From Escherichia phage vB_Eco_F27: a stretch of DNA of 64,000 nucleotides. Position 1 is the first letter of the stretch. Each line of letters begins with the position of its first letter. The notes beneath the pieces were generated by a model. That model was not told the DNA's origin and did not search any database. It saw only the letters and a list, made by a program, of their open reading frames with translations. The position numbers and the translations under genes were made by a program. The DNA lies in sequence record OP870146.1; one strand, written 5' to 3'. Of the stretch, positions 4,331 to 44,747 are shown piece by piece.

Positions 4331-5017
4331 TTAGAAGTCGTGAGTAGAATCGGCTTCCATCGCAATAACATAACTTACTTGAGAGCTTTCAAACTTGGCT
4401 GCAACTTTATCACCAGCTCCCCACAACATTACTTTATAGTTACCTGGCTGGATTTTCATATTAGCCATATTGATTACGAAGTTAAAGTTGTTAGAACCAT
4501 CATAATCGGTAAGAGTCAAAGAATACTTAGGACGAGTTAGTCCGGAATCTTCAACTTTATTATAGCCATTGATAACAATTTTACCATCTTTATTTGTAAT
4601 AGCAATTGTATCAATCTGAAGTCCACGTGAAACTCGAAGCAATTGTTGAAGGTCTTCAGCTTTAATTTCAGTAATCACAGAAGCCACTGGGAATTGAATT
4701 GGCTTATTAGGAAAAACAATGGTGCTCTTGTCGGCAGCAGGCCAATAAACTGTGGAACGTGTATCTGCAATTTTAATATTGCCATCAGTATGCATTGAAA
4801 TTTCGGCATCATCAGACACTAGACTCAAAATGCTTAAGAAGCTATTCAAATCATAAAGTGCTACGTCAAAATCAATTTCATCAGAGATATTTGCTTCCGC
4901 ATAAGTGGTGCCATTAACTGCGCGAGTCATAATAAATTTACCTTGACTCAGCAGAATGCCAGAGTTAATAGAGGCAAAGTTTTTCAGAATAGCGATAGTA
5001 TCTTTAGACAGTTTCAT
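4331..5017 (-). CDS. 45: sliding clamp gp45
   Basis: Start moved to the ATG at 5017 (MKLSKDTIAILKNFASINSG...) preceded by AAAGGAAAT; 228 aa as in T4. Confidence 0.92.
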   Translation of the reverse strand: MKLSKDTIAILKNFASINSGILLSQGKFIMTRAVNGTTYAEANISDEIDFDVALYDLNSFLSILSLVSDDAEISMHTDGNIKIADTRSTVYWPAADKSTIVFPNKPIQFPVASVITEIKAEDLQQLLRVSRGLQIDTIAITNKDGKIVINGYNKVEDSGLTRPKYSLTLTDYDGSNNFNFVINMANMKIQPGNYKVMLWGAGDKVAAKFESSQVSYVIAMEADSTHDF

Positions 5018-5059
5018 TTTATTTCCTTTCAAGACAATTCAAAGTTTATAACAAATTTA

Positions 5060-5476
5060 TTACGCAGCAACCATCTGCTTTTTAATAGCTTCAGGCAGTG
5101 ATTCAATATATTCTGGAATTTTAGAAGCAACAATTTCGCCAGCTGCAATTAGTTGTTCGTCGGCATCAACACAGTAAAAATCTTCAAGGCGTTCAGAACC
5201 GTCTTTATCAAGAACGATTTTAGCACCTGCTTCGATAGAATCTTTATAGTGCTTACGCATCAAATGAATCCACATATCAGACACATCGTTATCAATAAAA
5301 CCATAAATCATAAAACGAGTTTCTTGTGGCAAAGATTGGAGTTTTTTAGCACTTGCGTCATCACAATGCAGGACCCATGCTTTACGAACACGATTATGGT
5401 TATGTGGGTTAGCGTCAGTACGGATAGAAGTAACTTTCAGATCAGCAGCAGTGAAACCTTTAGCAGTAGTAAACAT
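5060..5476 (-). CDS. rpbA: RNA polymerase binding protein RpbA (positional and size match)
   Basis: 138 aa ORF between gene 45 and gene 46 region. Confidence 0.7.
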   Translation of the reverse strand: MFTTAKGFTAADLKVTSIRTDANPHNHNRVRKAWVLHCDDASAKKLQSLPQETRFMIYGFIDNDVSDMWIHLMRKHYKDSIEAGAKIVLDKDGSERLEDFYCVDADEQLIAAGEIVASKIPEYIESLPEAIKKQMVAA

Positions 5477-5488
5477 ATTATTTCTCTC

Positions 5489-5689
5489 TTATTCGTAGAA
5501 GTCGGTAACTGTCCATGCGGAATTGCGATTAGACATTATTTTATTATACTCATCTTTAAAAGCAGATTTGAGCATTTGTTCAGTAACAATATGTTCTTCA
5601 CCTGAAAACGTATTGGTCAAAACATATTTTTTAATTTCAGGGACAACGAGAAGATGTTGTCCAGTTGAATACTCCATGTTGTTCTCCAT
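5489..5689 (-). CDS. hypothetical protein (45.2 position)
   Basis: 66 aa ORF, co-oriented and tightly packed. Confidence 0.5.
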   Translation of the reverse strand: MENNMEYSTGQHLLVVPEIKKYVLTNTFSGEEHIVTEQMLKSAFKDEYNKIMSNRNSAWTVTDFYE

Positions 5690-10845: not shown

Positions 10846-11174
10846 TTTACCGCCTTAACAATTTTCAAGTCAGCGAATTTTTTCTTACGTTGATTTTTCA
10901 TACGACGGATAGTCTTTTCAGAGATTTCATGTTTCTGATAAGCTTTAGATTCAACACCAAATGCAGCAACGTCAAATTCAGAAAGAATATATTGTACTAG
11001 AATTTCGCGAATAGAATTACGTCCAATTTTCTGGTCGTGTTTTTGCATGATTTCATAAAGACGGAATTCCCACGCATCAAGAACTTGAGGAGTAACAATA
11101 TTGCCGGATTCCAGAAGAGCAACAACTTTATCGAAAGCGAAAGAATTAACTACGTTTTTGATTTTAGTAGACAT
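10842..11174 (-). CDS. hypothetical protein
   Basis: Start set to the ATG at 11174 (MSTKIKNVV...) preceded by GAGGAAAA. Confidence 0.45.
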   Translation of the reverse strand: MSTKIKNVVNSFAFDKVVALLESGNIVTPQVLDAWEFRLYEIMQKHDQKIGRNSIREILVQYILSEFDVAAFGVESKAYQKHEISEKTIRRMKNQRKKKFADLKIVKAVK

Positions 11175-11243
11175 ATTATTTTCCTCGGTTATTTTATTAT
11201 CCAATGAGAGCATTATACTCTGCTCTCAAGAGTTTGTAAATCG

Positions 11244-11444
11244 TTATCCGAACTTTTTAGCGCCTTTCCAGCCTTCGTACATAACTGCGCAAGTCAATAG
11301 CACAGCGTGTTGGCATTCTTTGTATTTGTAAATCCAGAACCAGCGTAAGAAGTCTTCATCCTCAACGCCGTTGAGTTTCATATTGGCAAAGAATTCAGCT
11401 CGTTCTTCGCGAAGTTTTTGAGATAACATAGATTCAGGATTCAT
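11244..11444 (-). CDS. hypothetical protein
   Basis: 66 aa ORF. Confidence 0.4.
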   Translation of the reverse strand: MNPESMLSQKLREERAEFFANMKLNGVEDEDFLRWFWIYKYKECQHAVLLTCAVMYEGWKGAKKFG

Positions 11445-11668
11445 TTTATATTCCAGGCCCCATTTTCATCGATGAACTTAATCCAGTCATTTACAGACCA
11501 TTTAGTTGTATCACCCTTTGGATTAACATTTAAAGTATATAATCCCTGCTTAAAAAGCATTCGTTTGATATTCATAATTTCCTCAACTGTAACGATAACA
11601 TTCGTTAGCTTTACGTTTGGCTTCAGTATGAGAAGTATTATAATCATACTCTTCTTTACTGTAAACAT
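11441..11668 (-). CDS. hypothetical protein (start uncertain)
   Basis: 75 aa ORF overlapping the stop-proximal end of 11583..11876; true start may be an internal Met. Confidence 0.3.
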   Translation of the reverse strand: MFTVKKSMIIILLILKPNVKLTNVIVTVEEIMNIKRMLFKQGLYTLNVNPKGDTTKWSVNDWIKFIDENGAWNIK

Positions 11669-11876
11669 CTTTTTTCAACTTACGAACTTCTTTGCGGAGT
11701 TGTCGATTCATTTCATTCTTGACTTCAGAATCAACGCCTTTCATACGTTTCCATTTATCTGAGCGGAAAATGTTTTCAACCATGTCTTTGTGGCTAACAC
11801 CGTCAGGAGCTTTACGCTTACCAAAATAGTCGTAATCACGAACTTTCAAATCTTTACGACGATATGTTTTACCCAT
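11583..11876 (-). CDS. hypothetical basic protein
   Basis: ATG at 11876 (MGKTYRRKDLKV...) preceded by GAGGT; track start is a TTG further upstream. Confidence 0.45.
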   Translation of the reverse strand: MGKTYRRKDLKVRDYDYFGKRKAPDGVSHKDMVENIFRSDKWKRMKGVDSEVKNEMNRQLRKEVRKLKKDVYSKEEYDYNTSHTEAKRKANECYRYS

Positions 11877-32462: not shown

Positions 32463-32861
32463 TTATTTGTAGGTTTTCATCCAATTCTTGAACAAAGCCG
32501 CGACGTCTTTCTCTTTAACGTTCAGTTTAATGTCCAACATTTTACCGCCCGCTGCTCTCGTTTGACGAATCTTAGCAGTACCGGTTTCACCATTCCACTC
32601 AACATAATATTGCCCAGTGTTCATAGCGATACCGTTGCCAAAGTCTTCGTTATTAGAAGTAGTGAATGCCAACTTCATGGTCTTAGAGACACGGGCCGGC
32701 ATGCCTGTCTGAAGGGCATTACGAACGCGAATAACCTGAGGAGTGGCCTGGGTCAGGTTCTCATTCAGTTCTTCGGTGAACTCTTCAGATTCAAACATCG
32801 CCAAAAGTTCTTTAGATGCAGGAATTACATTCTCTGCGATAAATTCTTTATATGTTTTCAT
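32463..32861 (-). CDS. internal protein-like, with capsid targeting sequence
   Basis: 132 aa starting MKTYKEFIAE, the T4 internal-protein capsid targeting sequence; preceded by a GTTTAC...TGGTATAAT promoter. Confidence 0.6.
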   Translation of the reverse strand: MKTYKEFIAENVIPASKELLAMFESEEFTEELNENLTQATPQVIRVRNALQTGMPARVSKTMKLAFTTSNNEDFGNGIAMNTGQYYVEWNGETGTAKIRQTRAAGGKMLDIKLNVKEKDVAALFKNWMKTYK

Positions 32862-32925: not shown

Positions 32926-33186
32926 TTAAGCTTTACCGCCAGAAATAATTCCGAAGTTGTTAAAATCGTATCCAATATCGTCAACATCTACTTTAGGACT
33001 TACTACAACATAAGCAATTTCACTACGTTTTGCATAGGTGTTTATTTCTTTACCATCACCACCTAAGAAAGAATACCCATTACGTTTTAATGAGCCAAAG
33101 TCTTCCGCATCACCAATGAAAGCTTTAACTTTAAATTTAGGACCTTTGGCATCTGCTTCAACGATAAATTCTTGATACATTTTCAT
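32926..33186 (-). CDS. internal protein-like, with capsid targeting sequence
   Basis: 86 aa starting MKMYQEFIVE. Confidence 0.55.
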   Translation of the reverse strand: MKMYQEFIVEADAKGPKFKVKAFIGDAEDFGSLKRNGYSFLGGDGKEINTYAKRSEIAYVVVSPKVDVDDIGYDFNNFGIISGGKA

Positions 33187-33355: not shown

Positions 33356-33637
33356 CTATTTTTCTGAAGCGCCTGAAATATATTTTTCAAGACGTTGTTT
33401 CATTAAAGAGCCGTTCTTAGCGATTTCTTCCGGTTTATCGCACATACGCAACAAGGCTTCGAGCTTAACGATATCGCTGGTACGTTCAAATTTGCGAGTA
33501 TCTATCTTACTAGCAAGTTCAGAAATACGTGCTAATAGACTTTCGGCTTCAACCAAAGCTGCACCTAGCTTAGTTGCAAATGTGTCAGTAGCTTCGTTAA
33601 GAATAGATTCTGATAAAAATTCACTATATGTTTTCAT
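33356..33637 (-). CDS. internal protein-like, with capsid targeting sequence (ipIII/ipII position)
   Basis: 93 aa from [10 protein letters not shown]; lies directly downstream of e. Confidence 0.6.
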
Positions 33638-34122
33638 ATATACGCTTTCCAAGTTCCTGTTTTAAATGTTGAGATTACGCGTTTCGCGCGATTAGGTGTC
33701 TGACGATACCATTTAGATTGGGCTAGATTTACTGCCGCTTCGTCCCAACGTTTCTGTTGAAGCATACGAAGAGAATTAGTAAAACCGGCAACGCCTGCTA
33801 CGCCCATTTGGAAGACCATATTGACCAATGCACATCGACGAACAGCATCTAAAGAATCATATACCGGTTTAAGTTTAGCATTACCCAAGATTCCGCGAAC
33901 GGCTTTATCAACGTCTTCATTAAATAGCTTTTCAGCCTCATCAAGGGTAATTGTACCGTTGCATTTACGACCGATCATTCTGTCAAGTTCAGCTTTAGCT
34001 ACGGCTAAAGAAGGGTTCTTTGTTACTAAATGGCCTATGCCAATCGTCCAAAAGCCTTCAGTGTCTTTGTATAAAGTCAGTCTAAGACCTTCGTCATTAC
34101 GAAGCATTTCAAATATATTCAT
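33634..34122 (-). CDS. e: lysozyme (endolysin)
   Basis: [32 protein letters not shown]... 162 aa, near-identical to T4 lysozyme; start set to the ATG at 34122. Confidence 0.93.
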
Positions 34123-34156: not shown

Positions 34157-34615
34157 TTATAGGAGGGTAGTGAGCACCTTATATAATGATTTGCCCATTA
34201 CATATTCCCATTGAGAAGGTTTAATTAAAGCGAATGCATCAAATTCAGGAATCTGACGTCCGTCTGGGAATGTATGATAGGAATTACAAACACTGTTTCT
34301 GAATTGCTCGTGCTCTACAGGGATGGTATATAGGAACAGATGAATATTCTTATTGTCTGAGTAATGATGTTCACCTAGGTCTTTCAGGAAGGCAGGGTCA
34401 TATTGTGTAAACCCAGTTTCTTCTTCGCATTCACGAATAGCGGCTTCAATAGGAGATTCGCCAGGTTCGACACGGCCTTTAGGAATATCCCACCGATGAG
34501 CTAATGCACCTTTAGGACGAGAACCAGTTACACGGCCCATGAATAATTCTTTATCTTTTGTCATGAAGATAATACCAGCGGACAACTCTTTCACTTTATT
34601 TTTCTTACTCATCAT
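34157..34615 (-). CDS. nudE: Nudix hydrolase
   Basis: 152 aa; Nudix box GRVEPGESPIEAAIRECEEETG. Confidence 0.8.
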   Translation of the reverse strand: MMSKKNKVKELSAGIIFMTKDKELFMGRVTGSRPKGALAHRWDIPKGRVEPGESPIEAAIRECEEETGFTQYDPAFLKDLGEHHYSDNKNIHLFLYTIPVEHEQFRNSVCNSYHTFPDGRQIPEFDAFALIKPSQWEYVMGKSLYKVLTTLL

Positions 34616-34856
34616 CTCGGTCCCATGATTTGGCCATTAATTCGGACATAAATTCTTCAATGCGCGTTTCTTTAGATGGACTTTCACTATTAGAGACCGC
34701 AAGTTTGTAATCTGCAATAGGACAGAACATATCAAGGTCCATATTAAGGTCGTCTTTGATTTTTTCTTCTGACACATCTTTATCGTATGTGTACAGATAA
34801 CTATCACATGATTCTGATTTAATGTAAATTGCTATACTCATCTCAAATTCCTGCAT
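34605..34856 (-). CDS. hypothetical acidic protein
   Basis: 83 aa ORF. Confidence 0.45.
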   Translation of the reverse strand: MQEFEMSIAIYIKSESCDSYLYTYDKDVSEEKIKDDLNMDLDMFCPIADYKLAVSNSESPSKETRIEEFMSELMAKSWDRDDE

Positions 34857-35335
34857 TCGGTAATAAAACGTTCAACTTCATTATTCTTGGCCTTTATCTT
34901 GTCTTTACGTTCCTGTAAACTACTTTTAACAAGATTAATAATGATGCCTACAGTACCTCCACCAATAATACCACCAATAATACTTACAATAGTAGATGCT
35001 AATAAGATAGCGATAATATCTAGTACAGCAAAGGCACTTACTTTAGTACTAAAAAACCATACCGACGGTACAAATATAATCCATCCTGTTATCCATTGGC
35101 ACTTATTGAAAAACTTTTCAAGCTCAGCTTGAGTTGTTCGTATTACTTCATCGATAGGTTGATATCCATTAATGTATCTGTTCACAATAATACCTGCTGG
35201 CTGGTCGATTTTAAATTCTTGGCAAATATGTTTCACTAAGTAGGATGGACATCCTGTCCAATCTACCGAATAATACGAAATACCTTCGTTGCCATCGTCT
35301 ATATTAGACCAATATGTTTTGTTAATCATTACCAA
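34838..35335 (-). CDS. hypothetical membrane protein
   Basis: 165 aa with two hydrophobic helices. Confidence 0.5.
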   Translation of the reverse strand: MVMINKTYWSNIDDGNEGISYYSVDWTGCPSYLVKHICQEFKIDQPAGIIVNRYINGYQPIDEVIRTTQAELEKFFNKCQWITGWIIFVPSVWFFSTKVSAFAVLDIIAILLASTIVSIIGGIIGGGTVGIIINLVKSSLQERKDKIKAKNNEVERFITECRNLR

Positions 35336-36015
35336 CCTTCCATAGGGAATTCCAGATAAACTTGGGCATTGACACGAATTTCATTGGTAATCTTTTTAAC
35401 TCGGTCTGTATTACGAGATACACGTCCGAACCAACGCCATCCATTACTAATTGCACGAGAACCAGTGTGCCATGTTTGCCAATCAAACTGAAGAAGAGTA
35501 CGATCTGGAGCTTCCCATTTCTCTAGTTCACCTTTTTCAATTTTTTCGAGGACTTCTTTGTGCCACTGGCGATAGATAAGTTCGCCATCAGGAATCTGAC
35601 TGAACTCTGCAGTTCCTGTTGCAAAATGAGTAGGACACACATCAGCGTTAACAAGACCAAGAATATGTTCAGACAAATAGCGAGGATTGTCATAATCAGG
35701 TTGTCCTGCAGTAATAAAATGTTGTCCTGTTGGAATATCTGGGCGTGGTACGTCATCATGGTGATATCCAGGAATAGCAGGGTACCAACCAGGCATCAAC
35801 ATGTGGACTCGTGAATCAAATACTACATCCGAGTCTTTCCAATCGTCAGGGAGATTTTGAATAAAGCTACGAGTAATTGGGCCGCCATTATCAAAAGCAA
35901 AATTCAAATCGCAGTTAAAGAACATAGGCTCGTTTTTAATCTGGTCGTTTTTAATCGCATGAGCAAAACCACCTACTGCACGAGCTTGACTATTAAACAC
36001 TTTAGAACTATTCAT
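35329..36015 (-). CDS. hypothetical protein
   Basis: 228 aa ORF. Confidence 0.55.
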   Translation of the reverse strand: MNSSKVFNSQARAVGGFAHAIKNDQIKNEPMFFNCDLNFAFDNGGPITRSFIQNLPDDWKDSDVVFDSRVHMLMPGWYPAIPGYHHDDVPRPDIPTGQHFITAGQPDYDNPRYLSEHILGLVNADVCPTHFATGTAEFSQIPDGELIYRQWHKEVLEKIEKGELEKWEAPDRTLLQFDWQTWHTGSRAISNGWRWFGRVSRNTDRVKKITNEIRVNAQVYLEFPMEGW

Positions 36016-36016
36016 A

Positions 36017-36322
36017 TTATTTTCCTCGACATTCTTTAATGAAATTTTCTAGATTGGTAGATTCAATAGCTTTTTTACGAGCTTCAACATGTTCTTCTTC
36101 AGACAATTTACATTTATAATTGACCCAGACATTATGGTCGAAACTAGTCGTGGCATATAATAACAAAGCTCCGACGAATAATAAAAACGGTGATAAGAAT
36201 ATACAACCAGGCACACCATCCATACTGTAAGCCTTTTGTAATACTGCAACAGAAAGAGTTGCGTAAAAAAGTGATGCAAATATTGTTAAAAGACCAATTC
36301 GGTTGGTTTCGCCTAATTTCAT
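36017..36322 (-). CDS. hypothetical membrane protein
   Basis: 101 aa ORF. Confidence 0.5.
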   Translation of the reverse strand: MKLGETNRIGLLTIFASLFYATLSVAVLQKAYSMDGVPGCIFLSPFLLFVGALLLYATTSFDHNVWVNYKCKLSEEEHVEARKKAIESTNLENFIKECRGK

Positions 36323-36392
36323 AATATTCTCCTCATGTTTTAATAGGACTACTATAACATAGTCCTATAATTGTGTAAACAGTTTTGCGAAA

Positions 36393-37349
36393 TTATTTGA
36401 AAGGTTTTACCATATGGAAATTTTGTTTGAAACGTTTGACGTAATCGTCATGTCCTAAGCTTTGGTACATACTTACTACTTTGCTGTAGTTTTCCCAGGC
36501 GTATTCACGGAACCAACCGGAGGTGATGCTTGTGCAGACTTTTTCTAATGCCATCATGAAACTGGCTTCAGGGTTAATTTTAAAGTCATTAGGAATCTGA
36601 GAACGTTCTAATGCTAGTACACATGATTCTTCATATACACCGGCCAATTTGACCATTTCTGGTAACGATTCGAACTTCTCGCGTGAGGTCATGACTTCAG
36701 AACCGTCTTTCATATAAAATGTATAAGCCGGACGGTCTGTTAGTGCAATGGCTTCATGAATAGTATCATGGTCATATGTATAGATGTCATCTTTAAAGAA
36801 CGCACTTTTAGAAGTGTCAAGAACCGGGTGAGCATAGTTCAAGGTTTCTTTCTGGCGTTTCAGCATAATTTCAGTAAGTTCATCGTTCAGTGTAACACCT
36901 TTACCACGAAGATACTGAATATGGTTCATAGTCTTTAAAAAGAATGGATTATTTTTCTTGAAACGATGAGACATCTTAATTGCAAGACATATCTCAGGAG
37001 TTGCCCAGTAAAACCCGTTCAAACGGTCTTTAGTCAAATTTTTCTTGGCGTATTTTAAAAGGTCATAAGAAGACGTGAAATCTTCAGGAGTGAGTTCACC
37101 GACTAATTCACGGACATTAGTGATTGCCGGAACAATATATGCTTCAAAATGAGTTTCGCGTCCATTATGGAAGCATTTGAAAACTTGGACATCAGGGTTA
37201 TCTTGGTGAACATATACACCCATCATTTGATTTTTGAATGCATTCCAAGAACCTTGGTCCGCAATAAAGTCCCAATCGCTATTTTTGATAGCGCTAGAAT
37301 CAATAAGACCATGATAGTGAAGTGCACGAGAACCAATAACTAACATCAT
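36393..37349 (-). CDS. Pol-beta-type nucleotidyltransferase-like protein
   Basis: 318 aa; IGSRALHYHGLIDSSAIKNSDWDF fits the GSx9-13DxD pattern. Confidence 0.5.
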   Translation of the reverse strand: MMLVIGSRALHYHGLIDSSAIKNSDWDFIADQGSWNAFKNQMMGVYVHQDNPDVQVFKCFHNGRETHFEAYIVPAITNVRELVGELTPEDFTSSYDLLKYAKKNLTKDRLNGFYWATPEICLAIKMSHRFKKNNPFFLKTMNHIQYLRGKGVTLNDELTEIMLKRQKETLNYAHPVLDTSKSAFFKDDIYTYDHDTIHEAIALTDRPAYTFYMKDGSEVMTSREKFESLPEMVKLAGVYEESCVLALERSQIPNDFKINPEASFMMALEKVCTSITSGWFREYAWENYSKVVSMYQSLGHDDYVKRFKQNFHMVKPFK

Positions 37350-37377
37350 AATATTTTCCTCGGATTAATTCATTAAC

Positions 37378-37629
37378 TTAAATTTCACGACATGCGATAT
37401 TATATTCGTCCCAGAGGTCATCGTGTGAAGCCTCTACCAATGGAACGATTGTACCGTTTATGTCTTCATTATAAGGGCAAATTGTACAGTGCGCATCTTC
37501 GAATCGGATGCCTTTGTGTTCAGATTTTTTATAACGCATATCGAATATCTTTGCAAACTTTTCACGAGTAATGGTTTTAGCAACCACTTTGGTTCCGATA
37601 CTTTCGTAATAAATCATTGTGGACTCCAT
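37378..37629 (-). CDS. hypothetical Cys-containing protein
   Basis: 83 aa ORF. Confidence 0.45.
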   Translation of the reverse strand: MESTMIYYESIGTKVVAKTITREKFAKIFDMRYKKSEHKGIRFEDAHCTICPYNEDINGTIVPLVEASHDDLWDEYNIACREI

Positions 37630-37679
37630 TTAATTTGATAGGACTACTATAACATAGCCCTATCTTGTTGTAAACTGTT

Positions 37680-37877
37680 TTAGCAAGAATAACTAGATGA
37701 TACCCAGCCTTGAACAGTGATACTATTATGGGATAATGAGATCGCGTCCTGGAGATTCAGACCTGCGTTATCTTCAATCCATAATGTAACTTCTTCGCGT
37801 TCTTCTGTTGCAATTTGGAACAGGTTTTCCAGAGCAGCTACTGCCGTACGTACAGCACAATCTAATTCACGAGACAT
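37680..37877 (-). CDS. small protein, WVSSSxxC-terminus family (paralog 1)
   Basis: 65 aa ending ...QGWVSSSYSC. Confidence 0.45.
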   Translation of the reverse strand: MSRELDCAVRTAVAALENLFQIATEEREEVTLWIEDNAGLNLQDAISLSHNSITVQGWVSSSYSC

Positions 37878-37886
37878 ATTGTTTCC

Positions 37887-38159
37887 TTAGCAAGTGTGAG
37901 AAGATGCGACCCAACCACCAGTTTCGAGGCTCAGGTTGTAGTCGTATTGGTAAACGTCAGCCCATTCAGCATAGCCGTTTTTTGTACAACGTTCAAGATC
38001 GGCTTTAAGATGTCCGGGTGAATGATAGGTTCCACCCATACCATAAGCTGGATACAAGTCGAATGTTGTGTTTTGTTTATCAGCAATTTCTTTGGCAGCC
38101 TCAATAGCTGCATAGATTTTTGCTACAGCTTCAGCCAGTTCGGTTTGTTCTTTAGACAT
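37887..38159 (-). CDS. small protein, WVSSSxxC-terminus family (paralog 2)
   Basis: 90 aa ending ...GGWVASSHTC. Confidence 0.45.
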   Translation of the reverse strand: MSKEQTELAEAVAKIYAAIEAAKEIADKQNTTFDLYPAYGMGGTYHSPGHLKADLERCTKNGYAEWADVYQYDYNLSLETGGWVASSHTC

Positions 38160-38168
38160 AATGATTCC

Positions 38169-38474
38169 TTAGCACAACGCAGAAGACGAAACCCAAGCAC
38201 CTTCAGTAATAACGTAACCATTACCTTCACGCTTAACATCGCCACCATTATTTTCAATTTCATCTTTCATCCACTGGGATACGATTTCACCCTTAGGATA
38301 ATAAGTACGACCACTACCATAATCACCTACAGAAAATGATACGGCATATTGGTCTGCGATCTTTGTTGCTTCTTCTTCGATACGTTCAGCTTGATTCAGA
38401 AGTTTATAAATTGCATCTGAAGCGGATTTGGCATCATTAAACTCTGGTACTTTAATTTCAATAATCTTACTCAT
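38169..38474 (-). CDS. small protein, WVSSSxxC-terminus family (paralog 3)
   Basis: 101 aa ending ...GAWVSSSALC. Confidence 0.45.
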   Translation of the reverse strand: MSKIIEIKVPEFNDAKSASDAIYKLLNQAERIEEEATKIADQYAVSFSVGDYGSGRTYYPKGEIVSQWMKDEIENNGGDVKREGNGYVITEGAWVSSSALC

Positions 38475-38830
38475 TTTCTACATTCCTTAATAAAGTTTTC
38501 GATTGTTTCATTTTCACGTCTAGCTAGGAGTTCATTATAACTAATCGTTTGAGAAGCGTAAACCTTTTTATTTTTCTTGTTGTGGTTTATAAAATCGTAG
38601 TAAAAATAGACTACAGTACAAAATGATGCGATGGATGCAAAGGCTTGGGTATACCGTAAGTCCTGCCATTGGTCTGTGAATCCACCAGTGTTCCCTATAA
38701 ATCCTAACACAACGCCGTCAATAAGAAATCCAACTAATCCAAAGGCAAATCCCATGCCAATACTCATAATAAAAATTAGAATGTTCTCACCAAGAGAAGG
38801 CCATACGGTTAAGAGTTGAGGCTTTTGCAT
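38471..38830 (-). CDS. hypothetical membrane protein
   Basis: 119 aa ORF. Confidence 0.45.
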   Translation of the reverse strand: MQKPQLLTVWPSLGENILIFIMSIGMGFAFGLVGFLIDGVVLGFIGNTGGFTDQWQDLRYTQAFASIASFCTVVYFYYDFINHNKKNKKVYASQTISYNELLARRENETIENFIKECRK

Positions 38831-39234
38831 CTTATTTCCTTAACGAATTCCATAGCTTCTTCATATTCATACTTTTTAACAGCTTCATCATACTGAGCTT
38901 GGGCTTTTGCGCACTGAACTTTCCATTCGCGTACTCGAGCTCTATAATGACGGCCTTGGTGCCAATATCCTGCCCAATTAATAGGCATTAATAAAAATGG
39001 CACAATAAACGGCCCGGCTATAATAAGTAAAAACACTGCATCAGACGATATAACTTCACTAGAATCTAAAACAGCTCCTATAATCATAAAGATTAAAAAT
39101 GCTAAAGCTAAAATAGGGCCAAATAGTACTTCATTTGGGATTAATTTACGTTTGTATTCGTATGCCCAGGGCTTAATTGGCATGTACAGGGTTGGCTTTG
39201 ACATATTCTCTACATTCCATAATAAATTGCTCAA
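38809..39234 (-). CDS. hypothetical membrane protein (start uncertain)
   Basis: 141 aa ORF. Confidence 0.4.
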   Translation of the reverse strand: MSNLLWNVENMSKPTLYMPIKPWAYEYKRKLIPNEVLFGPILALAFLIFMIIGAVLDSSEVISSDAVFLLIIAGPFIVPFLLMPINWAGYWHQGRHYRARVREWKVQCAKAQAQYDEAVKKYEYEEAMEFVKEIRCKSLNS

Positions 39235-39775
39235 GGATTAAATTGTTAGTGAAATTAGGACTAACAACCATAGTTTCATAAAGCGCATCAATAGCACTTA
39301 AAGCATCAACTCTTTTAAGCAAAGGCTTGCCTTCATACATAGTTTCAGAATCGATGATTAACGTAAAGTAATATTTTTTATTATCGACTAGAACTTCCGT
39401 ATCGATATAAAACATATTAGACCTCAGAAGCTTATCTCTAAAACCATAATAATCTTCAGAGCGTTCGCTGATATATTCCCATTCAGTGTTTAAACAACAA
39501 ACAGACCATGTAGGAGCAACGAAATCGGTGAATCTAATATCATGGTCTGCAACTAGTTTAGCAATAGCTCCGATATCATGAATCATAATACCTGGGGCTA
39601 ATAAAGATTTTCTGCTATGGCTAGCCGTTTTCTCAGTAGTCTCATAAGAAGACGACCAGTACCATTTACGTCCAGTTGCAACATATCGTAATGAATCAAC
39701 TAAAGATGTAGGTGGATTTACCTTATCTCGGAACTCTTCGAACATTGAGTCAATATCATTATTTTGGTTTCGCAT
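39173..39775 (-). CDS. hypothetical protein
   Basis: ATG at 39775 (MRNQNNDIDS...) preceded by AAGGAG. Confidence 0.5.
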   Translation of the reverse strand: MRNQNNDIDSMFEEFRDKVNPPTSLVDSLRYVATGRKWYWSSSYETTEKTASHSRKSLLAPGIMIHDIGAIAKLVADHDIRFTDFVAPTWSVCCLNTEWEYISERSEDYYGFRDKLLRSNMFYIDTEVLVDNKKYYFTLIIDSETMYEGKPLLKRVDALSAIDALYETMVVSPNFTNNLILEQFIMECREYVKANPVHAN

Positions 39776-39824
39776 GTTAACTCCTTTATTATCCAAAAGG
39801 AGGACCGGAGTCCTCCGTATTATT

Positions 39825-40418
39825 TTATTTCAAAGAGTTAATATATTCTTGTACATCAGCAGAAGTGGTTTCGACGCCGGCTGGAGTGCCATTGAACGTT
39901 TCAACACGAGTCAGAGTGTCTTCGATATCAACCTTAGTCAGTGCAGCGATTTCAATTACATCATCGGCCGTAGAGATACCAAGGGCATTGGCTGCTCGAG
40001 TTTCACGAATGTATTCGAGTTTGATTGCCAGGTTCTGACGAGCATCGTCAAGTTCAACCACCTTACGAGCAATTTCAATTCGCATAGCGGCATACCCGTC
40101 AGCTTTTGTATTAAGTTGTTCGGCAGTTCGACGATACAGAAGACCAAGCTTAGCATGCATGGTAACATCTTGTCCTTCAGCCAGGAGCTTACGAATTTCA
40201 CGTTCCTTAGAAGCGGCTTGCTTGTTCTTTTCATTAACAAGTTCGCGAATACGTTTTTCTTCATTAATAGATTTAACAGAAGCCGTTTTTAGTTCTTTGA
40301 TTTGGGTAATCAACTTATCTGCAGCTGCGTTATACTGTTCTTCGACAGTCAGATTTTTAGCCATAGCAGTACCAAGTTTAGTGCGGATGAATTCAACAAG
40401 TTTCTTCAGTGTGTTCAT
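39825..40418 (-). CDS. hypothetical coiled-coil protein
   Basis: 197 aa from the ATG at 40418 ([10 protein letters not shown]...). Confidence 0.5.
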
Positions 40419-40488
40419 ATTATTACCTTTCAATTGGTGGTTTATTATCCAACGAGAGCATTATACTCTGCTCTCAAGAGATTGTAAA

Positions 40489-40716
40489 TTATTTTTTAAT
40501 CAAATTGACATAAAACTCGGCGTCTTCCGGGTGCATGCCTTCGCAGTATTCTTCAACCATGAACTTCTTAACAGCTTCATAAGGACCGCTCAGATTAAGC
40601 TCAGTTGTCCAGAACTTGGAATCTTGGACCGAATCGATACGAACTTCAGGGTGACGGTTGCGAATAACTTCTTCAGTGTATTCATAATCAACGACATCAA
40701 TACTAACTGTAGCCAT
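40489..40716 (-). CDS. hypothetical acidic protein
   Basis: 75 aa ORF. Confidence 0.45.
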   Translation of the reverse strand: MATVSIDVVDYEYTEEVIRNRHPEVRIDSVQDSKFWTTELNLSGPYEAVKKFMVEEYCEGMHPEDAEFYVNLIKK

Positions 40717-40763
40717 TTTGTTTCTCCTCTTGATTTGATGTGATTACTATAACATAAACGTAC

Positions 40764-40928
40764 TTAGATGTAAATTATTTCAACGTCACCTTTAGCGGCT
40801 TTATAACCTTCAGCCCAAGATACAACAGAGTTTTTATCCGAGGATTCAAATTCAGGCATTGGACTTTCACCAATATTCACACAGTATGTTTCTTCATTTT
40901 CATCGAACCAAATAATTAAAGTAGTCAT
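40764..40928 (-). CDS. hypothetical small protein (below ORF-track size cut-off)
   Basis: 54 aa MTTLIIWFDENEETYCVNIGESPMPEF... read by hand; GAGGAG RBS and promoter-like element upstream. Confidence 0.35.
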   Translation of the reverse strand: MTTLIIWFDENEETYCVNIGESPMPEFESSDKNSVVSWAEGYKAAKGDVEIIYI

Positions 40929-40996
40929 TTTGTTTACTCCTCTGTAGTTGATAAGTCTATAGTATCACCATCCTTGGTGCTTGTACATCATTATTT

Positions 40997-41302
40997 TTAA
41001 TTTTTCCAACTTAACAACTTGTAGTGTCCTTCATTCATACGTGGTTTATCCCAAGAAATACTAATATATGATTCGCTGTCAATAGAAGTCGCCGGGTTTT
41101 TCTCTACCGTAAGACCTTCACTTTCCAGCCATTCAATAGTATTTGCGCATAAATCAGAAGAACACCTAATCGGAAACCGGCAAGATTTTTCACCTTTAGC
41201 TGCAGTGTTATACATCTTTTCTAAAATACGCTTTTGCACGTTTTTAAAAATAGTTTCAGCAGATTCTTCAGATTTTTTATTCAGTTCAGTGTAAAGACTC
41301 AT
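40997..41302 (-). CDS. hypothetical protein
   Basis: 101 aa ORF. Confidence 0.45.
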   Translation of the reverse strand: MSLYTELNKKSEESAETIFKNVQKRILEKMYNTAAKGEKSCRFPIRCSSDLCANTIEWLESEGLTVEKNPATSIDSESYISISWDKPRMNEGHYKLLSWKN

Positions 41303-41390
41303 AATATTCTCCTCATGTTTTGATAGGTCTATAGTAACACATCTAGGGAAGAAGTAAACAACTTTTTCAGTAAGTTATAAACCCCCTAAT

Positions 41391-41406
41391 GGGGACCGAA
41401 GTCCCC
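41391..41406 (-). terminator. GGGGAC-TTCG-GTCCCC stem-loop downstream of 41412..42038
   Basis: Perfect 6-bp stem with UUCG loop, seen directly. Confidence 0.5.
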
Positions 41407-41411
41407 ATTCT

Positions 41412-42038
41412 TTACTTACGAGTTTTTGCATATTGAGCAGCGTCAGCAGCCAAACGACCTGCCTGACGAAGTTTTTCTTTAATCGCATCGTGAAGTGGTT
41501 GAGTGTACTTCAAACCTTCGATAGTCAAATAAAGACGATAAAGGTCCGGGGTATCAAGGTTGTTGATATGTTGGCCATTACGAAGAATATTGAATTCACG
41601 AACGAGTGAAGATGTATCGGATTCAATATCACGAACAAGCGAAGATAGTTGTTTATATTTTTTTTCCAGACTAGAAGTATCAAACTTAAGAGCAGGAGCT
41701 TTAGGAGTTGCTTTTACTTCAGGCTTAGGCTCAGGTTTTGCTATTGCTTTAGGGGTCGCAGGTTTAGGAATGGAAGGAGTAGGTTTTACTTTAGGCGAAC
41801 CCGATTTAGCAGAAACACCACCACTAACAATATCTTTGAATGCTTTAGAAGCTCTGTAATATTCTTTTTGGCTGGAAGTGTCGATACCGTACATGGCTTG
41901 AACGTTTTTGAAAAACTCTGTACTAGTTTTTGTACCAGAAATAGCATCGTAAGCAGCTTGCCATTTCTCTTTTGTCATACGTACACCGGCTTCGGTGATT
42001 ACTTCCGTTTCGGCTAAAAATTCATTAAAAGTATACAT
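41412..42038 (-). CDS. internal protein-like, capsid targeting sequence variant and Pro/Lys-rich linker
   Basis: 208 aa starting MYTFNEFLAE; TATAAATA late-promoter consensus on the minus strand at 42074-42081. Confidence 0.5.
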   Translation of the reverse strand: MYTFNEFLAETEVITEAGVRMTKEKWQAAYDAISGTKTSTEFFKNVQAMYGIDTSSQKEYYRASKAFKDIVSGGVSAKSGSPKVKPTPSIPKPATPKAIAKPEPKPEVKATPKAPALKFDTSSLEKKYKQLSSLVRDIESDTSSLVREFNILRNGQHINNLDTPDLYRLYLTIEGLKYTQPLHDAIKEKLRQAGRLAADAAQYAKTRK

Positions 42039-42073: not shown

Positions 42074-42081
42074 TATTTATA
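42074..42081 (-). promoter_or_regulatory. late promoter consensus TATAAATA
   Basis: Exact match on the minus strand about 36 nt upstream of the ATG at 42038. Confidence 0.5.
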
Positions 42082-42111
42082 CAAAAAAGCCCCAACCTTT
42101 CGGAAGGGGCT
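42082..42111 (-). terminator. intrinsic terminator AGCCCCTTCC-GAAA-GGTTGGGGCT plus U-run
   Basis: Same hairpin sequence as at 26793-26822. Confidence 0.65.
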
Positions 42112-42119
42112 ATATACCT

Positions 42120-42414
42120 TGTCGGGGTTTCCACCTACTAAGGCAAGTGTTTGTACGAAACGCCGGGATTCGAACCCGGTTATTGAGTAGTTGACGCTAC
42201 TCAATATTTTTAAAAGGCCATATCTCGACCATATCCGAACGTTCCGTCAAAAACGCTACTCGGCTTACGGCAAAGATATTTCCTCGAATCGATAATTCGG
42301 TGCGCCGTTTCTGCTGTGATGTAAGGGGATATTAACAAATCGTAAAGATTTATTAAGACCAGTCCTTACTCAGGGAACATCAGTCCGACGACTTACCGGT
42401 AGCGACCCGGCTTC
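42120..42414 (-). ncRNA. candidate structured stable RNA region (tRNA-like T-arm, no full cloverleaf found)
   Basis: No plausible ORF; contains ACCGGGTTCGAATCCCGG (T-arm-like) and a 9-bp hairpin ATTGAGTAG/CTACTCAAT. By position could correspond to T4 stable RNA species. Confidence 0.3.
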
Positions 42415-42759
42415 TTATTTTGGCATATCATCAATTTGCTCTCGACGCCGACGCCATAGATTAATCGCTTCATAAACACATTCTGCGTTTGGTATATGAC
42501 GGCAATAATATAATGATTCGCGTTTCTGGAATCGATGTTGCAATGGGATTTCGTTTAAAAGGTCTTTACGGTCAAAGTATTCAAAACTAGTTAACCCGGA
42601 ACGGTTTTTAATGAACTTCCAATGACCAAATTCATTTTGAACATAGATGTAATCTGCATGTTGGTATAACAAATTAATCAATCGGTCTGAAATAACTGTA
42701 TCATGTTCGTTAAAATAAAACGTTAAATCATGAACTACTAAGTAAACATTACCTTTCAT
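42415..42759 (-). CDS. hypothetical protein inside the tRNA region
   Basis: 114 aa from the ATG at 42759 (MKGNVYLVVHDL...) after GAGGAAAA. Confidence 0.5.
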   Translation of the reverse strand: MKGNVYLVVHDLTFYFNEHDTVISDRLINLLYQHADYIYVQNEFGHWKFIKNRSGLTSFEYFDRKDLLNEIPLQHRFQKRESLYYCRHIPNAECVYEAINLWRRRREQIDDMPK

Positions 42760-42777
42760 ATTTTCCTCACTTAAAAT

Positions 42778-42854
<77 letters not shown>

Positions 42855-42954: not shown

Positions 42955-43029
42955 TGGTGGCCCTGGCTGGTTTCGATCCAGCTACCTATCAGTTATGAGC
43001 TGACAGCTCTCCCATTGAGCTACAGGGCC
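42955..43029 (-). tRNA. tRNA with CAU anticodon (Ile2-type or Met)
   Basis: Hand-folded: acceptor GGCCCTG/CAGGGCC, D-arm GCTC-AATGGGA-GAGC, anticodon stem GTCAG/CTGAT with loop CTCATAA, T-arm GCTGG-ATCGAAA-CCAGC, encoded CCA. Confidence 0.75.
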
Positions 43030-44031: not shown

Positions 44032-44295
44032 TTATTTCAAATATATTGCGTATTTTTTATAGCCACCAGGCTCGTGTCGAAGACCTTTATCATTCGCAAA
44101 ACGTTGAATGTTATTGAACTGATTTTCATCAAGTTCGGATGTGTCAAATATGAAAAAGTTTCGTTTGTTGCCAAGCGTGATATGCGGAGTTAAGTCAATG
44201 TTATACAAATTAAGAATATCAGCAATAACCTGATTGACCGCTTTGTTAATTTTCACACCAGACGATTCTGAGATGAATTCGTTGAAAGTTTTCAT
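44032..44295 (-). CDS. internal protein-like, with capsid targeting sequence (ipI locus)
   Basis: 87 aa from MKTFNEFISE. Confidence 0.55.
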   Translation of the reverse strand: MKTFNEFISESSGVKINKAVNQVIADILNLYNIDLTPHITLGNKRNFFIFDTSELDENQFNNIQRFANDKGLRHEPGGYKKYAIYLK

Positions 44296-44356
44296 TTTAG
44301 GTTCCATTTGGTTGTTTTGATAGGACTACTATAACATAATCCTATCGTGTTGTAAA

Positions 44357-44668
44357 TTATTTTATGCCTTTAGAAGAAATGGTGTTTTGGCGTTTGGTCC
44401 CTGTTTGTGAAAAATCGTGGTTATCGATTTGGTCGACTCGCATAACACCAAATGCAGATTTAATTTTAGCCTTTGAACCTTTTTTGATACTAATTATCAT
44501 ATAAGTATCATTTTTCTTATATTCGAAATTTGTTACTTCAACGCCTTGATTAGAAATTGACTTAATAATAGCATTAGCGTATTCATCATCTAACGGACCG
44601 GTGGTGTTAATAATAAAATTTTTATCGGCTTTAGTAGCTTCAGCGATAAACTCTTGATAAGTTTTCAT
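44357..44668 (-). CDS. internal protein-like, with canonical capsid targeting sequence (ipI locus)
   Basis: 103 aa from MKTYQEFIAE, identical to the T4 internal-protein capsid targeting sequence; the rest of the protein does not match T4 IPI as I recall it. Confidence 0.6.
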   Translation of the reverse strand: MKTYQEFIAEATKADKNFIINTTGPLDDEYANAIIKSISNQGVEVTNFEYKKNDTYMIISIKKGSKAKIKSAFGVMRVDQIDNHDFSQTGTKRQNTISSKGIK

Positions 44669-44747
44669 TTGTTTTTTCCGTTTGGTTTGAGATTTGATAG
44701 GATGATAGTAACACACCATCATCCTTATGTAAACTGTTTTGTGAAAA

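Follow-up and report, generated by a model that had tools for sequence, protein, structure and literature searches.

The block of genes between nudE and the stable RNA genes of Escherichia phage vB_Eco_F27 (sequence record OP870146.1) can be read, with moderate confidence, as an old mosaic that was shortened in T4 and that holds four functional units. It lies in a stretch of 64,000 nucleotides (hereafter the window) and consists of 17 non-nested, consecutive open reading frames (ORFs) on the minus strand, from nudE (34157-34615) up to position 42038, numbered O1 to O17 starting at nudE (Table 1). The four units are the e.6 system (O13, a likely member of the PspA/IM30/Vipp1 family, and its neighbours), the nucleotidyltransferase O5 with small proteins that share a C-terminal cysteine motif (tail-Cys proteins), the predicted dioxygenase O3 and the candidate internal head protein O17. 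T-even phages serve as the reference system for studies of lytic infection. To our knowledge, no function has been assigned to e.2-e.6 and their RB69-type neighbours since genome sequencing.

Comparison with T4 and other genera

A preliminary description of the window had put the corresponding T4 interval at about half this length, and had proposed the block as a likely site of lineage-specific gene gain. The estimate was right: measured from the start of nudE (67490) to the start of e.8 (70623), the T4 interval is 3.1 kb with 7 genes (e.2-e.8), which is 42% of the 7.43 kb in the window. Both intervals occupy the same slot, from lysozyme/nudE to the stable RNAs C and D and the tRNAs, and run on the same strand (PMC2839356, PMC4122927, PMC1524935). 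A synteny comparison did not find the same ORF set at comparable length in T4; common to both are only e.2 (in part), e.3, e.4, e.5 and e.6. Pairwise identity to T4 was 88% for e.6, 53% for e.4, 47% for e.5 and 35% for e.3, and O2 resembles T4 e.2 only over the N-terminal 45 amino acids (aa), with 42% identity. No homologs of e.7 and e.8 were found in the block by pairwise comparison with T4, and 12 of the 17 genes (O1, O3-O9 and O14-O17) have no homolog in the T4 interval examined.

Megablast placed the block with Mosigvirus (RB69-like) phages. At least 80% of it was covered by 131 phage records, the best 40 of which were 95-98% identical and all of Mosigvirus type. The e.6 neighbourhoods of other genera were compared by tblastn with all window proteins. 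O3, O5 and the O8/O9 family were present between nudE and e.6 in Dhakavirus QL01, Marfavirus Marfa and Moonvirus Merlin, and O5 with tail-Cys genes was also syntenic in Winklervirus phage CHI14. In Aeromonas phages an O9-like gene, O5 and e.6 are neighbours, with O3 in addition in jumbo Aeromonas phages. Homologs of O1 were present in QL01 and Merlin; for O12 (e.5, 207 aa) only positional analogs with the same C-terminal tail were seen in QL01, Marfa and Merlin. In addition, a set of 80 viral contigs of 8-371 kb with an O5 homolog (98% down to 37% identity) was collected, and e.6, nudE and O3 were found nearby in 31, 28 and 23 of these, respectively. O5 was found in 733 phage records, none of them at 80-95% identity; for e.6, 503 records fell at 80-90% identity, and these represent the T4 group.

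The extra 4 kb could also be an island for anti-defence or host takeover that Mosigvirus acquired after the split from T4. In favour of this, the block has 2.4 times the length of the T4 interval, most of its genes lack a homolog there, and several genes are flanked by promoter cassettes of the PeSL (early promoter stem-loop) type, which are known drivers of modular shuffling (PMC2839356). Furthermore, O4, O14, O15 and O16 were seen almost only in Mosigvirus loci, and small cassettes vary among Mosigviruses: a 66-aa gene lies between O4 and O5 in JS09 and JK42 and is absent here, and O15 and the tRNA sets differ as well. However, recent acquisition is at odds with the synteny of O3, O5 and the O8/O9 family in Dhakavirus, Marfavirus and Moonvirus, with that of O5 and the tail-Cys genes in Winklervirus CHI14 and Aeromonas phages, and with the presence of O5 and O3 (472 phage records) in many genera while the T4 group lacks both. 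In addition, none of the 17 proteins matched a defence or known anti-defence model (PADLOC and family scans). We consider acquisition by Mosigvirus improbable as an account of the extra DNA, and for the core genes O3 and O5-O9 largely refuted.

The proposed lineage-specific gain was therefore not borne out, since O3, O5 and the O8/O9 family are syntenic in several non-T4 genera and missing from the T4 group. Because outgroups carry these genes at this very site and the T4 lineage does not, their loss in Tequatrovirus is the simpler explanation. Judged from these sequence comparisons, the simplest reading is that the block is an old arrangement, reduced in the Tequatrovirus lineage, and mostly ancestral rather than recently gained.

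O5 and the tail-Cys proteins

Pfam assigned O5 to DUF7277 and DUF7275 only. Among 36 homologs, residues G6, S7, D25, D27 and E69 are invariant, as are many His, Cys and Asp residues of the C-terminal domain. O5 has the GS..[DE]x[DE] signature with a third carboxylate on a Pol-beta nucleotidyltransferase fold. Its structural matches were ANT(2'') (score 8.8), MenT3/TglT (8.7), MenT4 (7.9) and LnuA (7.4), together with TM1012 and JHP933. In 185,579 bacterial and archaeal species genomes O5 gave 5 matches, all on contigs of metagenome-assembled genomes (four of 73-167 kb and one of 2.3 kb). The modelled structure shows O5 to be a nucleotidyltransferase with a MenT/ANT-like fold, and its distribution is essentially restricted to phages. 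It differs from MenT/AbiEii (DUF1814) and from ANT(2'')/Lnu in its Pfam families, in this phage restriction and in an extra helical domain of 190 residues that lacks a structural match.

Upstream of O5 lie O7, O8 and O9, which end in variants of W-x-S-S-S-x-x-C (Table 1). Homologs with the same terminus were found in QL01, Marfa, Merlin, Aeromonas phages and a 149-kb gut phage. One to five tail-Cys copies were present in 71 of the 80 O5 loci, and tail-Cys ORFs also occurred at all 5 metagenomic loci with O5. In the 80 loci, 202 tail-Cys ORFs were on the strand of O5 and 5 on the opposite strand. All same-strand copies (204/204) were upstream of O5, at a median gap of 883 nt, and 200 of them were within 2.5 kb. 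Control loci without O5 contained no tail-Cys ORFs, and when all ORFs in the loci were clustered, the tail-Cys proteins were the only gene family that co-occurred with O5.

The alignment of the tail-Cys proteins, which are acidic (isoelectric point, pI, 4.2-4.8), showed only an invariant W, S and terminal C, with one further S nearly invariant. The two tail serines are encoded by all six Ser codons, which indicates selection on the protein; an RNA-level element was ruled out by this synonymous codon variation. A profile search with the tail-Cys proteins matched only hypothetical phage proteins.

The best reading of these data is that O5 and the tail-Cys proteins may form an enzyme-client pair, in which O5 would transfer a nucleotide to the invariant tail serine by O-nucleotidylation. 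The tail protein would either be activated in this way or act as a pseudo-substrate regulator. Three observations weigh against this reading: 9 of the 80 O5 loci have no tail-Cys copies, the C-terminal helical domain (DUF7275) has no match in the structure comparison, and actinophage homologs of O5 keep the catalytic motif without tail-Cys neighbours. The small proteins are therefore not universally required, and the pairing is a feature of Proteobacteria phages.

In the main rival reading, which is possible though we are doubtful, O5 would act on RNA like its closest structural relatives, as a MenT-type nucleotidyltransferase of tRNA acceptor ends, and the tail-Cys proteins would not be its targets and would serve as antitoxin-like pseudo-substrate inhibitors; O5 would then put a stop to translation in the host, or mend tRNA 3' ends that host defences have damaged. 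The structural match to MenT is nearly equalled by ANT(2'') and LnuA, enzymes that attach nucleotides to hydroxyls of small molecules. O5 is not a member of DUF1814 in a bacterial toxin-antitoxin operon (Pfam; no PADLOC match) and is absent from bacterial chromosomes, where toxin-antitoxin systems live. It would be unusual for one enzyme to have three to five divergent antitoxin paralogs, and the genes upstream of O5 differ from MenA/AbiEi in being multi-copy and defined by their terminus. Association of O5 with tRNA genes was rejected, since only 6 of the 56 loci from outside the T-even phages had tRNA genes within 6 kb of O5, roughly as expected by chance; this proximity does not discriminate between the two readings.

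A more far-reaching form of the enzyme-client reading, which we hold to be unlikely, is an undescribed, phage-restricted system for C-terminus modification. Here the serine of W-x-S-S-S-x-x-C would be O-nucleotidylated while the Cys/His-rich DUF7275 domain held the terminal cysteine, and each phage would carry 1-5 host-directed effectors. The product would be an effector that stays nucleotidylated or, if elimination follows, a dehydroalanine/lanthionine-like ring at the C-terminus, and such modified effectors would occur in hundreds of Proteobacteria phages. The arrangement resembles precursor arrays of ribosomally synthesised and post-translationally modified peptides (lanthipeptides) in its tandem small genes beside a putative modifying enzyme and in C-terminal Ser and Cys residues 3-4 residues apart. 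It differs from them in that the tail is conserved and not the leader, that the proteins are 60-110 aa long and look folded, and that a LanB, LanM, LanC or YcaO-type enzyme is missing; Pfam and NCBIfam found no LanB, LanM, LanKC or LanC family among the 17 proteins.

A subfamily of tail-Cys proteins carries the motif twice, as an internal D-W-L-[SN]-S-S-C-Y-G-E and a terminal W-x-x-S-S-C; it has no member in the window (examples in Table 1). O6 grouped with some tail-Cys proteins in single-linkage clustering. Directly downstream of the O5 homolog in the 149-kb human-gut phage contig (L011) is a gene (4931-5614) for a 227-aa protein, not an O3 homolog, with motifs like those of cytosine-5 DNA methyltransferases (..YDGSG.., ..GFPSC..), and a SIR2-domain gene lies 1.4 kb further.

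O3, a predicted dioxygenase

The AlphaFold2 model of O3 has a pLDDT (predicted local distance difference test) of 88.7. When it was compared with the PDB by Foldseek, nearly all of the 50 listed matches were Fe(II)/2-oxoglutarate dioxygenases of the PhyH type (probability 0.87-0.99), including HygX, ColD, GriE, proline hydroxylase H11, EctD and PHYHD1. H85-x-D87, H183 and R194 are invariant, R194 lying 11 residues past the distal His; homologs of only 30% identity, from Gordonia, Mycobacterium and Yersinia phages, keep all of them. O3 therefore shares with HygX, GriE, EctD, H11 and PHYHD1 the modelled double-stranded beta-helix, the HxD...H motif and the Arg at this distance. On the other hand, the Foldseek E-values were around 1e-3 with TM-scores (template modelling scores) of 0.3-0.4, Pfam PhyH/2OG-FeII_Oxy and NCBIfam gave no match, and these results count against the assignment. 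The O3 profile also had no match among PDB sequences. On the strength of the model and the invariant residues, O3 is likely a stand-alone PhyH-like Fe(II)/2-oxoglutarate dioxygenase. From the known members it differs in its lack of a Pfam match, its small size (228 aa), its location on phages and its identity of 70-96% across distant phages.

In total 1292 homologs of O3 were found, the top 120 at 68-93% identity. The copy in Dhakavirus QL01 is 96% identical to O3, with nudE at 74% in the same comparison, and a lone copy with 73% identity was present in an unrelated phage contig of 61.7 kb. Because of this extreme conservation together with horizontal mobility, O3 may act on a conserved host molecule, which it would hydroxylate.

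O3 and O5 were also considered as an obligate pair, which was rejected: O3 was present at only 23 of the 80 O5 loci, all T4-like, and occurs alone in the unrelated phage. A role of either protein in the arabinosyl-5-hydroxycytosine pathway of RB69 was rejected as well, as the published gene set (gp3, 28, 45-55 and 159) lies elsewhere (PMC13326640). In Gordonia phage ClubL (L105, 287-2172) a 30%-identical O3 homolog adjoins a gene for an RtcB-type tRNA splicing ligase, and in related Smoothievirus genomes (L103) an O5 homolog lies near a tRNA cluster.

e.6 and the shared tail of its neighbours

Homologs of e.6 occur in 1101 phage records. When 1.84 billion representatives were searched exhaustively with HMMER, a compact family (n = 37) emerged, of which 27 members are 195-209 aa long. 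When a profile of 28 members was compared with the PDB, the top eight matches were all Vipp1/IM30/PspA, with E-values from 6e-5 (9eom) to 2.5e-3 (6zvr), and the alignments were co-linear (query residues 1-140 to residues 1-140/150 of the Vipp1/PspA chain). PF04012 (PspA_IM30) was the Pfam family matched by most e.6-family members (5/28 at E <= 1), and its gathering score of 33.9 was exceeded by two of them, P0311 (39.0 bits) and P0310 (35.1 bits), both related to the window e.6 at an E-value of about 1e-7. It is therefore likely, from profile comparison, that e.6, including that of T4, belongs to the PspA/IM30/Vipp1 family of bacterial ESCRT-III proteins. It differs from PspA and Vipp1 in that it is shorter (197 aa), has an unrelated C-terminal part of 50 residues and is carried by a lytic phage.

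Several results weigh against this assignment. The window copy itself had no match to PF04012 in a single-sequence Pfam scan, and a shallow profile of 12 sequences matched Vipp1 only at an E-value of 0.13. Coiled-coil composition inflates the scores, with a bias of 14 of 26 bits in the match of the e.6 profile to the PDB. An hhalign comparison with a single E. coli PspA sequence gave a probability of 1.7 and is uninformative.

The gene e.6 has its own strong early promoter and terminator (Table 1), and its neighbours encode the small membrane proteins e.2, ORF133c, e.3 and e.4 and the soluble e.5. Small membrane-protein genes also accompany PspA (PspB/PspC) and LiaH (LiaI), but the neighbours of e.6 are not homologs of PspB, PspC or LiaI and are missing beside e.6 in RB43 and Aeromonas phages. 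A C-terminal tail [F]-[IV]-x-E-C-R is carried by three membrane proteins of the block (O2, O4 and O10) and by soluble e.5 (O12); O11 (e.4) has the variant F-V-K-E-I-R-C-K, without Cys at that place. T4 e.3 and e.5 carry the same tail and T4 e.4 a variant, and the tail is also found on non-homologous neighbours in QL01, Marfa and Merlin, on membrane and soluble proteins alike. F-I-x-x-C-R occurred 105 times on the gene strand and 18 times on the other strand, and 4 of the 6 window ORFs with this pattern are in the block.

The match of e.6 to PspA/Vipp1 might be a coiled-coil artefact, e.6 an unrelated helical protein, and the shared tails by-products of translational coupling and not protein motifs. 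In favour of such an artefact are the high compositional bias of the HMMER alignments, the lack of significance of the window e.6 alone and the occurrence of other coiled-coil families among the weak Pfam matches of the family. Moreover, the tails overlap the start or the ribosome-binding site of the gene that follows: in the window, each F-I-K-E-C-R tail is 0-20 nt from that gene's start and contains AAGGA-like ribosome-binding sequences. We nevertheless regard it as improbable, given that the best eight PDB matches are all Vipp1/PspA and co-linear from residue 1 to about 140, that two members exceed the curated PF04012 threshold in the family matched by most members, that the tail codons vary synonymously (CGA/AGA/AGG, TGT/TGC, TTT/TTC) and that the tail is also on non-homologous proteins of other genera. 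The synonymous variation rules out a pure ribosome-binding-site artefact for the tail and, with the coding-strand enrichment and the concentration of pattern ORFs in the block, points to a motif at the protein level.

If e.6 is a PspA-family protein, the phage would supply its own membrane-stabilising system, which would keep the inner membrane sealed and energised once the host's genes, those of the psp response among them, are no longer expressed. The F-I-x-E-C-R tail could conceivably dock its bearers to e.6, on the model of PspB/C-PspA and LiaI-LiaH. This weak proposal is further weakened by RB43 and Aeromonas phages, which carry e.6 without F-I-x-x-C-R neighbours. The C-terminal Y-N-I-A-C-R-E-I of O6, which also contains H-C-x-x-C, may be a degenerate copy of F-I-x-x-C-R.

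O17, a candidate internal head protein

O17 starts with MYTFNEFLAE, an N-terminal sequence ending in (L/I)-x-E, and is basic (pI 9.5) with a Pro/Lys-rich middle. A late promoter, TATAAATA, lies upstream of it at 42074-42081, and the terminator before that at 42083-42111. Its N-terminus resembles the T4 capsid-targeting sequence and is close to MKTYQEFIAE of the T4 internal proteins IPI, IPII and IPIII, which are likewise basic and have the TATAAATA late promoter; beyond the N-terminus O17, of 208 aa with its Pro/Lys-rich centre, is not similar to them. On account of the N-terminal motif and the late promoter, O17 is probably a late-expressed candidate internal head protein, packaged and injected, and not part of the early block. 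A strong hairpin, GGGGAC-UUCG-GUCCCC on the transcribed strand (41388-41409), follows directly after O17 and precedes the early promoter of O16; it is likely a terminator or stabiliser of the late O17 transcript. Five more window ORFs, on both sides of the block, start with a T4-type capsid-targeting sequence and are candidate internal head proteins (Table 1).

Promoters, gene content and boundaries of the block

T4-type early promoters were found upstream of six genes (O16, O15, O14, e.6, O6 and O4). They fit the consensus TTTACW-N17-TAYWAT, which was taken, together with the PeSL motif, from PMC4122927. The promoters of O4 and O6 coincide in part with an inverted repeat of 8 bp and are PeSL-like. 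Sixteen early genes would be organised in at least six promoter-delimited cassettes, with O17 as one late gene. Early promoters with stem-loops at the junctions fit the cassette-shuffling model for T4-type hyperplastic regions with PeSL (PMC2839356, PMC4122927). The block has e/nudE on one side and rnaC/D and the tRNAs on the other, and its content differs among close relatives; it represents, in Mosigvirus, the T-even 'e.x' hyperplastic region, and regions of this kind are known.

The preliminary description had listed 17 minus-strand ORFs over about 7.4 kb (34605-42038), including four membrane proteins, which the ORF listing and the hydrophobic segments confirmed. The ORFs are, from O1 to O17, 83, 165, 228, 101, 318, 83, 65, 90, 101, 119, 141, 207, 202, 75, 54, 101 and 208 aa long, and transmembrane (TM)-like hydrophobic segments are present in O2, O4, O10 and O11. 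All 17 matched PHROG families of unknown function (E-values 1e-19 to 1e-150) and are therefore real conserved genes and not chance ORFs. The paralog triplet that had been noted stands (37680-38474; O8 against O9, E 2e-5, with the shared tail), as does the nucleotidyltransferase-like protein, which is O5 with its invariant GS..DxD..E signature and fold; the coiled-coil protein of that description is e.6. Of the proposed boundaries, the nudE side holds, and the upstream limit is formed by homologs of the T4 stable RNAs D and C and not by the tRNAs. As in T4, these RNA genes are the true upstream boundary of the block. ARAGORN and Rfam reported nothing at their position, and Rfam does not model these RNAs. 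A T-arm-like GGTTCGAATCCCGGC lies within them at 42162-42176. The first tRNA genes beyond them are those for Arg(tct) (42778-42854) and Met(cat) (42955-43029). In T4, tRNA-Arg and rnaD adjoin each other; here an extra RB69ORF150c-like ORF, missing from Mosigvirus ESCO47, lies between the two, and its start is probably an ATG near 42759, since the longest form overlaps tRNA-Arg.

Several of the longest ORF forms start with TTG, and annotated relatives have shorter forms with ATG starts for O1, O2, O6, O11, O12 and O13. In the JS09 annotation, the equivalents of O1 to O9 are RB69ORF130c, e.2, 132c, 133c, 134c, 135c, 136c, 137c and 139c, and those from O10 on are e.3, e.4, e.5, e.6, Frd.3, 145c, 146c and a JS98 gp135-like gene. 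O4 and the C-terminal half of the e.2 family are paralogous. Scans with Pfam, NCBIfam, PHROGs and PADLOC gave DUF7277/DUF7275 (O5) and Phage_FRD3 (O14) as the only curated families among the 17 proteins. Some GenBank product names in relatives are unsupported, namely 'sulfurtransferase' (e.4), 'host specificity protein' (e.6) and 'prohead assembly scaffold protein' (O5 homolog).

Table 1. Genes and other features of the block and its surroundings, with related ORFs of other phages. Positions are those of the window unless a phage is named.
Feature	Position	Strand	Remarks
O1, small acidic protein, RB69ORF130c family	34605-34856	-	phrog_2900, E 8e-37; pI 4.1; likely start ATG 34841
O2, e.2-like membrane protein, end F-I-T-E-C-R	34838-35335	-	phrog_2203, E 7e-56; TM 92-137
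O3, predicted PhyH-like Fe(II)/2-oxoglutarate dioxygenase, 228 aa	35329-36015	-	AlphaFold2 model, Foldseek, invariant residues
O4, membrane protein with two TM segments, end F-I-K-E-C-R-G-K	36017-36322	-	phrog_9798; phrog_2203 at E 2e-5
Early promoter with overlapping stem-loop (PeSL-like), upstream of O4	36342-36380	-	TTTACA N17 TATAGT with TG
O5, nucleotidyltransferase DUF7277 (residues 2-101) and helical DUF7275 (120-305)	36393-37349	-	
O6, small protein between triplet and O5	37378-37629	-	phrog_3723, E 8e-37; same position in 12/80 related loci
Early promoter with stem-loop (PeSL-like), upstream of O6-O5	37637-37675	-	
O7, tail-Cys protein, end QGWVSSSYSC	37680-37877	-	phrog_4882
O8, tail-Cys protein, end GGWVASSHTC	37887-38159	-	phrog_899
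O9, tail-Cys protein, end GAWVSSSALC	38169-38474	-	phrog_899
O10, e.3 membrane protein, end F-I-K-E-C-R-K	38471-38830	-	35% identity to T4 e.3; TM segment
O11, e.4, membrane protein with two TM segments, variant tail F-V-K-E-I-R-C-K	38809-39234	-	53% identity to T4 e.4; likely start 39204
O12, e.5, soluble, F-I-M-E-C-R-E-Y near C-terminus	39173-39796	-	47% identity to T4 e.5
Intrinsic-terminator-like hairpin after e.6	39799-39816	-	
O13, e.6, likely PspA/IM30/Vipp1-family protein, 197 aa from ATG 40418	39825-40433	-	88% identity to T4 e.6
Early promoter directly upstream of e.6	40460-40488	-	TTTACA N17 TATAAT, 11/12 matches
O14, Frd.3-family protein	40489-40716	-	Pfam PF05798 (Phage_FRD3), E 5e-38
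O15, 54-aa protein, RB69ORF145c	40764-40928	-	phrog_5461; absent from Mosigvirus ESCO47
O16, 101-aa protein, RB69ORF146c	40997-41302	-	phrog_18312
O17, candidate internal head protein	41412-42038	-	basic, pI 9.5; N-terminal motif; late promoter
Homologs of T4 stable RNAs D and C (species 2 and 1)	42125-42414	-	93% identity over 291 nt to T4 rnaD+rnaC
Extra ORF, RB69ORF150c-like, between tRNA-Arg and rnaD	42415-42807	-	phrog_3355; tRNA-Arg/rnaD adjacent in T4
Further ORFs with capsid-targeting start	32463-32861, 32926-33186, 33356-33652, 44032-44307, 44357-44722	-	
Double-motif tail-Cys protein, QL01 (L006)	11265-11489		
Double-motif tail-Cys protein, Marfa (L007)	11146-11370		
Double-motif tail-Cys protein, Merlin (L008)	11614-11835		
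Double-motif tail-Cys protein, Aeromonas phage (L010)	6611-6826		

Significance

These comparisons correct the view of the block as a Mosigvirus novelty. Given the predicted PspA-like, nucleotidyltransferase, dioxygenase and injected-protein activities, a role in host takeover or anti-defence is plausible. Literature searches on e.5/e.6, DUF7275, phage PspA, MenT-like phage enzymes and screens of T-even accessory genes returned nothing on these genes, and no report of a phage PspA homolog or of a function of e.6 was found. By these searches, the predicted T-even PspA-family protein, the predicted phage-restricted nucleotidyltransferase with its tail-Cys proteins and the predicted mobile PhyH-like dioxygenase would be new.

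O3 is among the most conserved accessory genes of these phages and is mobile between unrelated phages, which suggests an important, conserved host target. The pairing of O5 with the tail-Cys proteins is a clean comparative signal, with every same-strand copy upstream in phage genomes of up to 371 kb, and hints at an enzyme-client chemistry. Should e.6 prove to work as a PspA homolog, T4 itself would encode a protein of the bacterial ESCRT-III type, and e.6 would offer a handle on how the membrane stays energised through holin build-up, lysis inhibition and membrane-targeting abortive defences.

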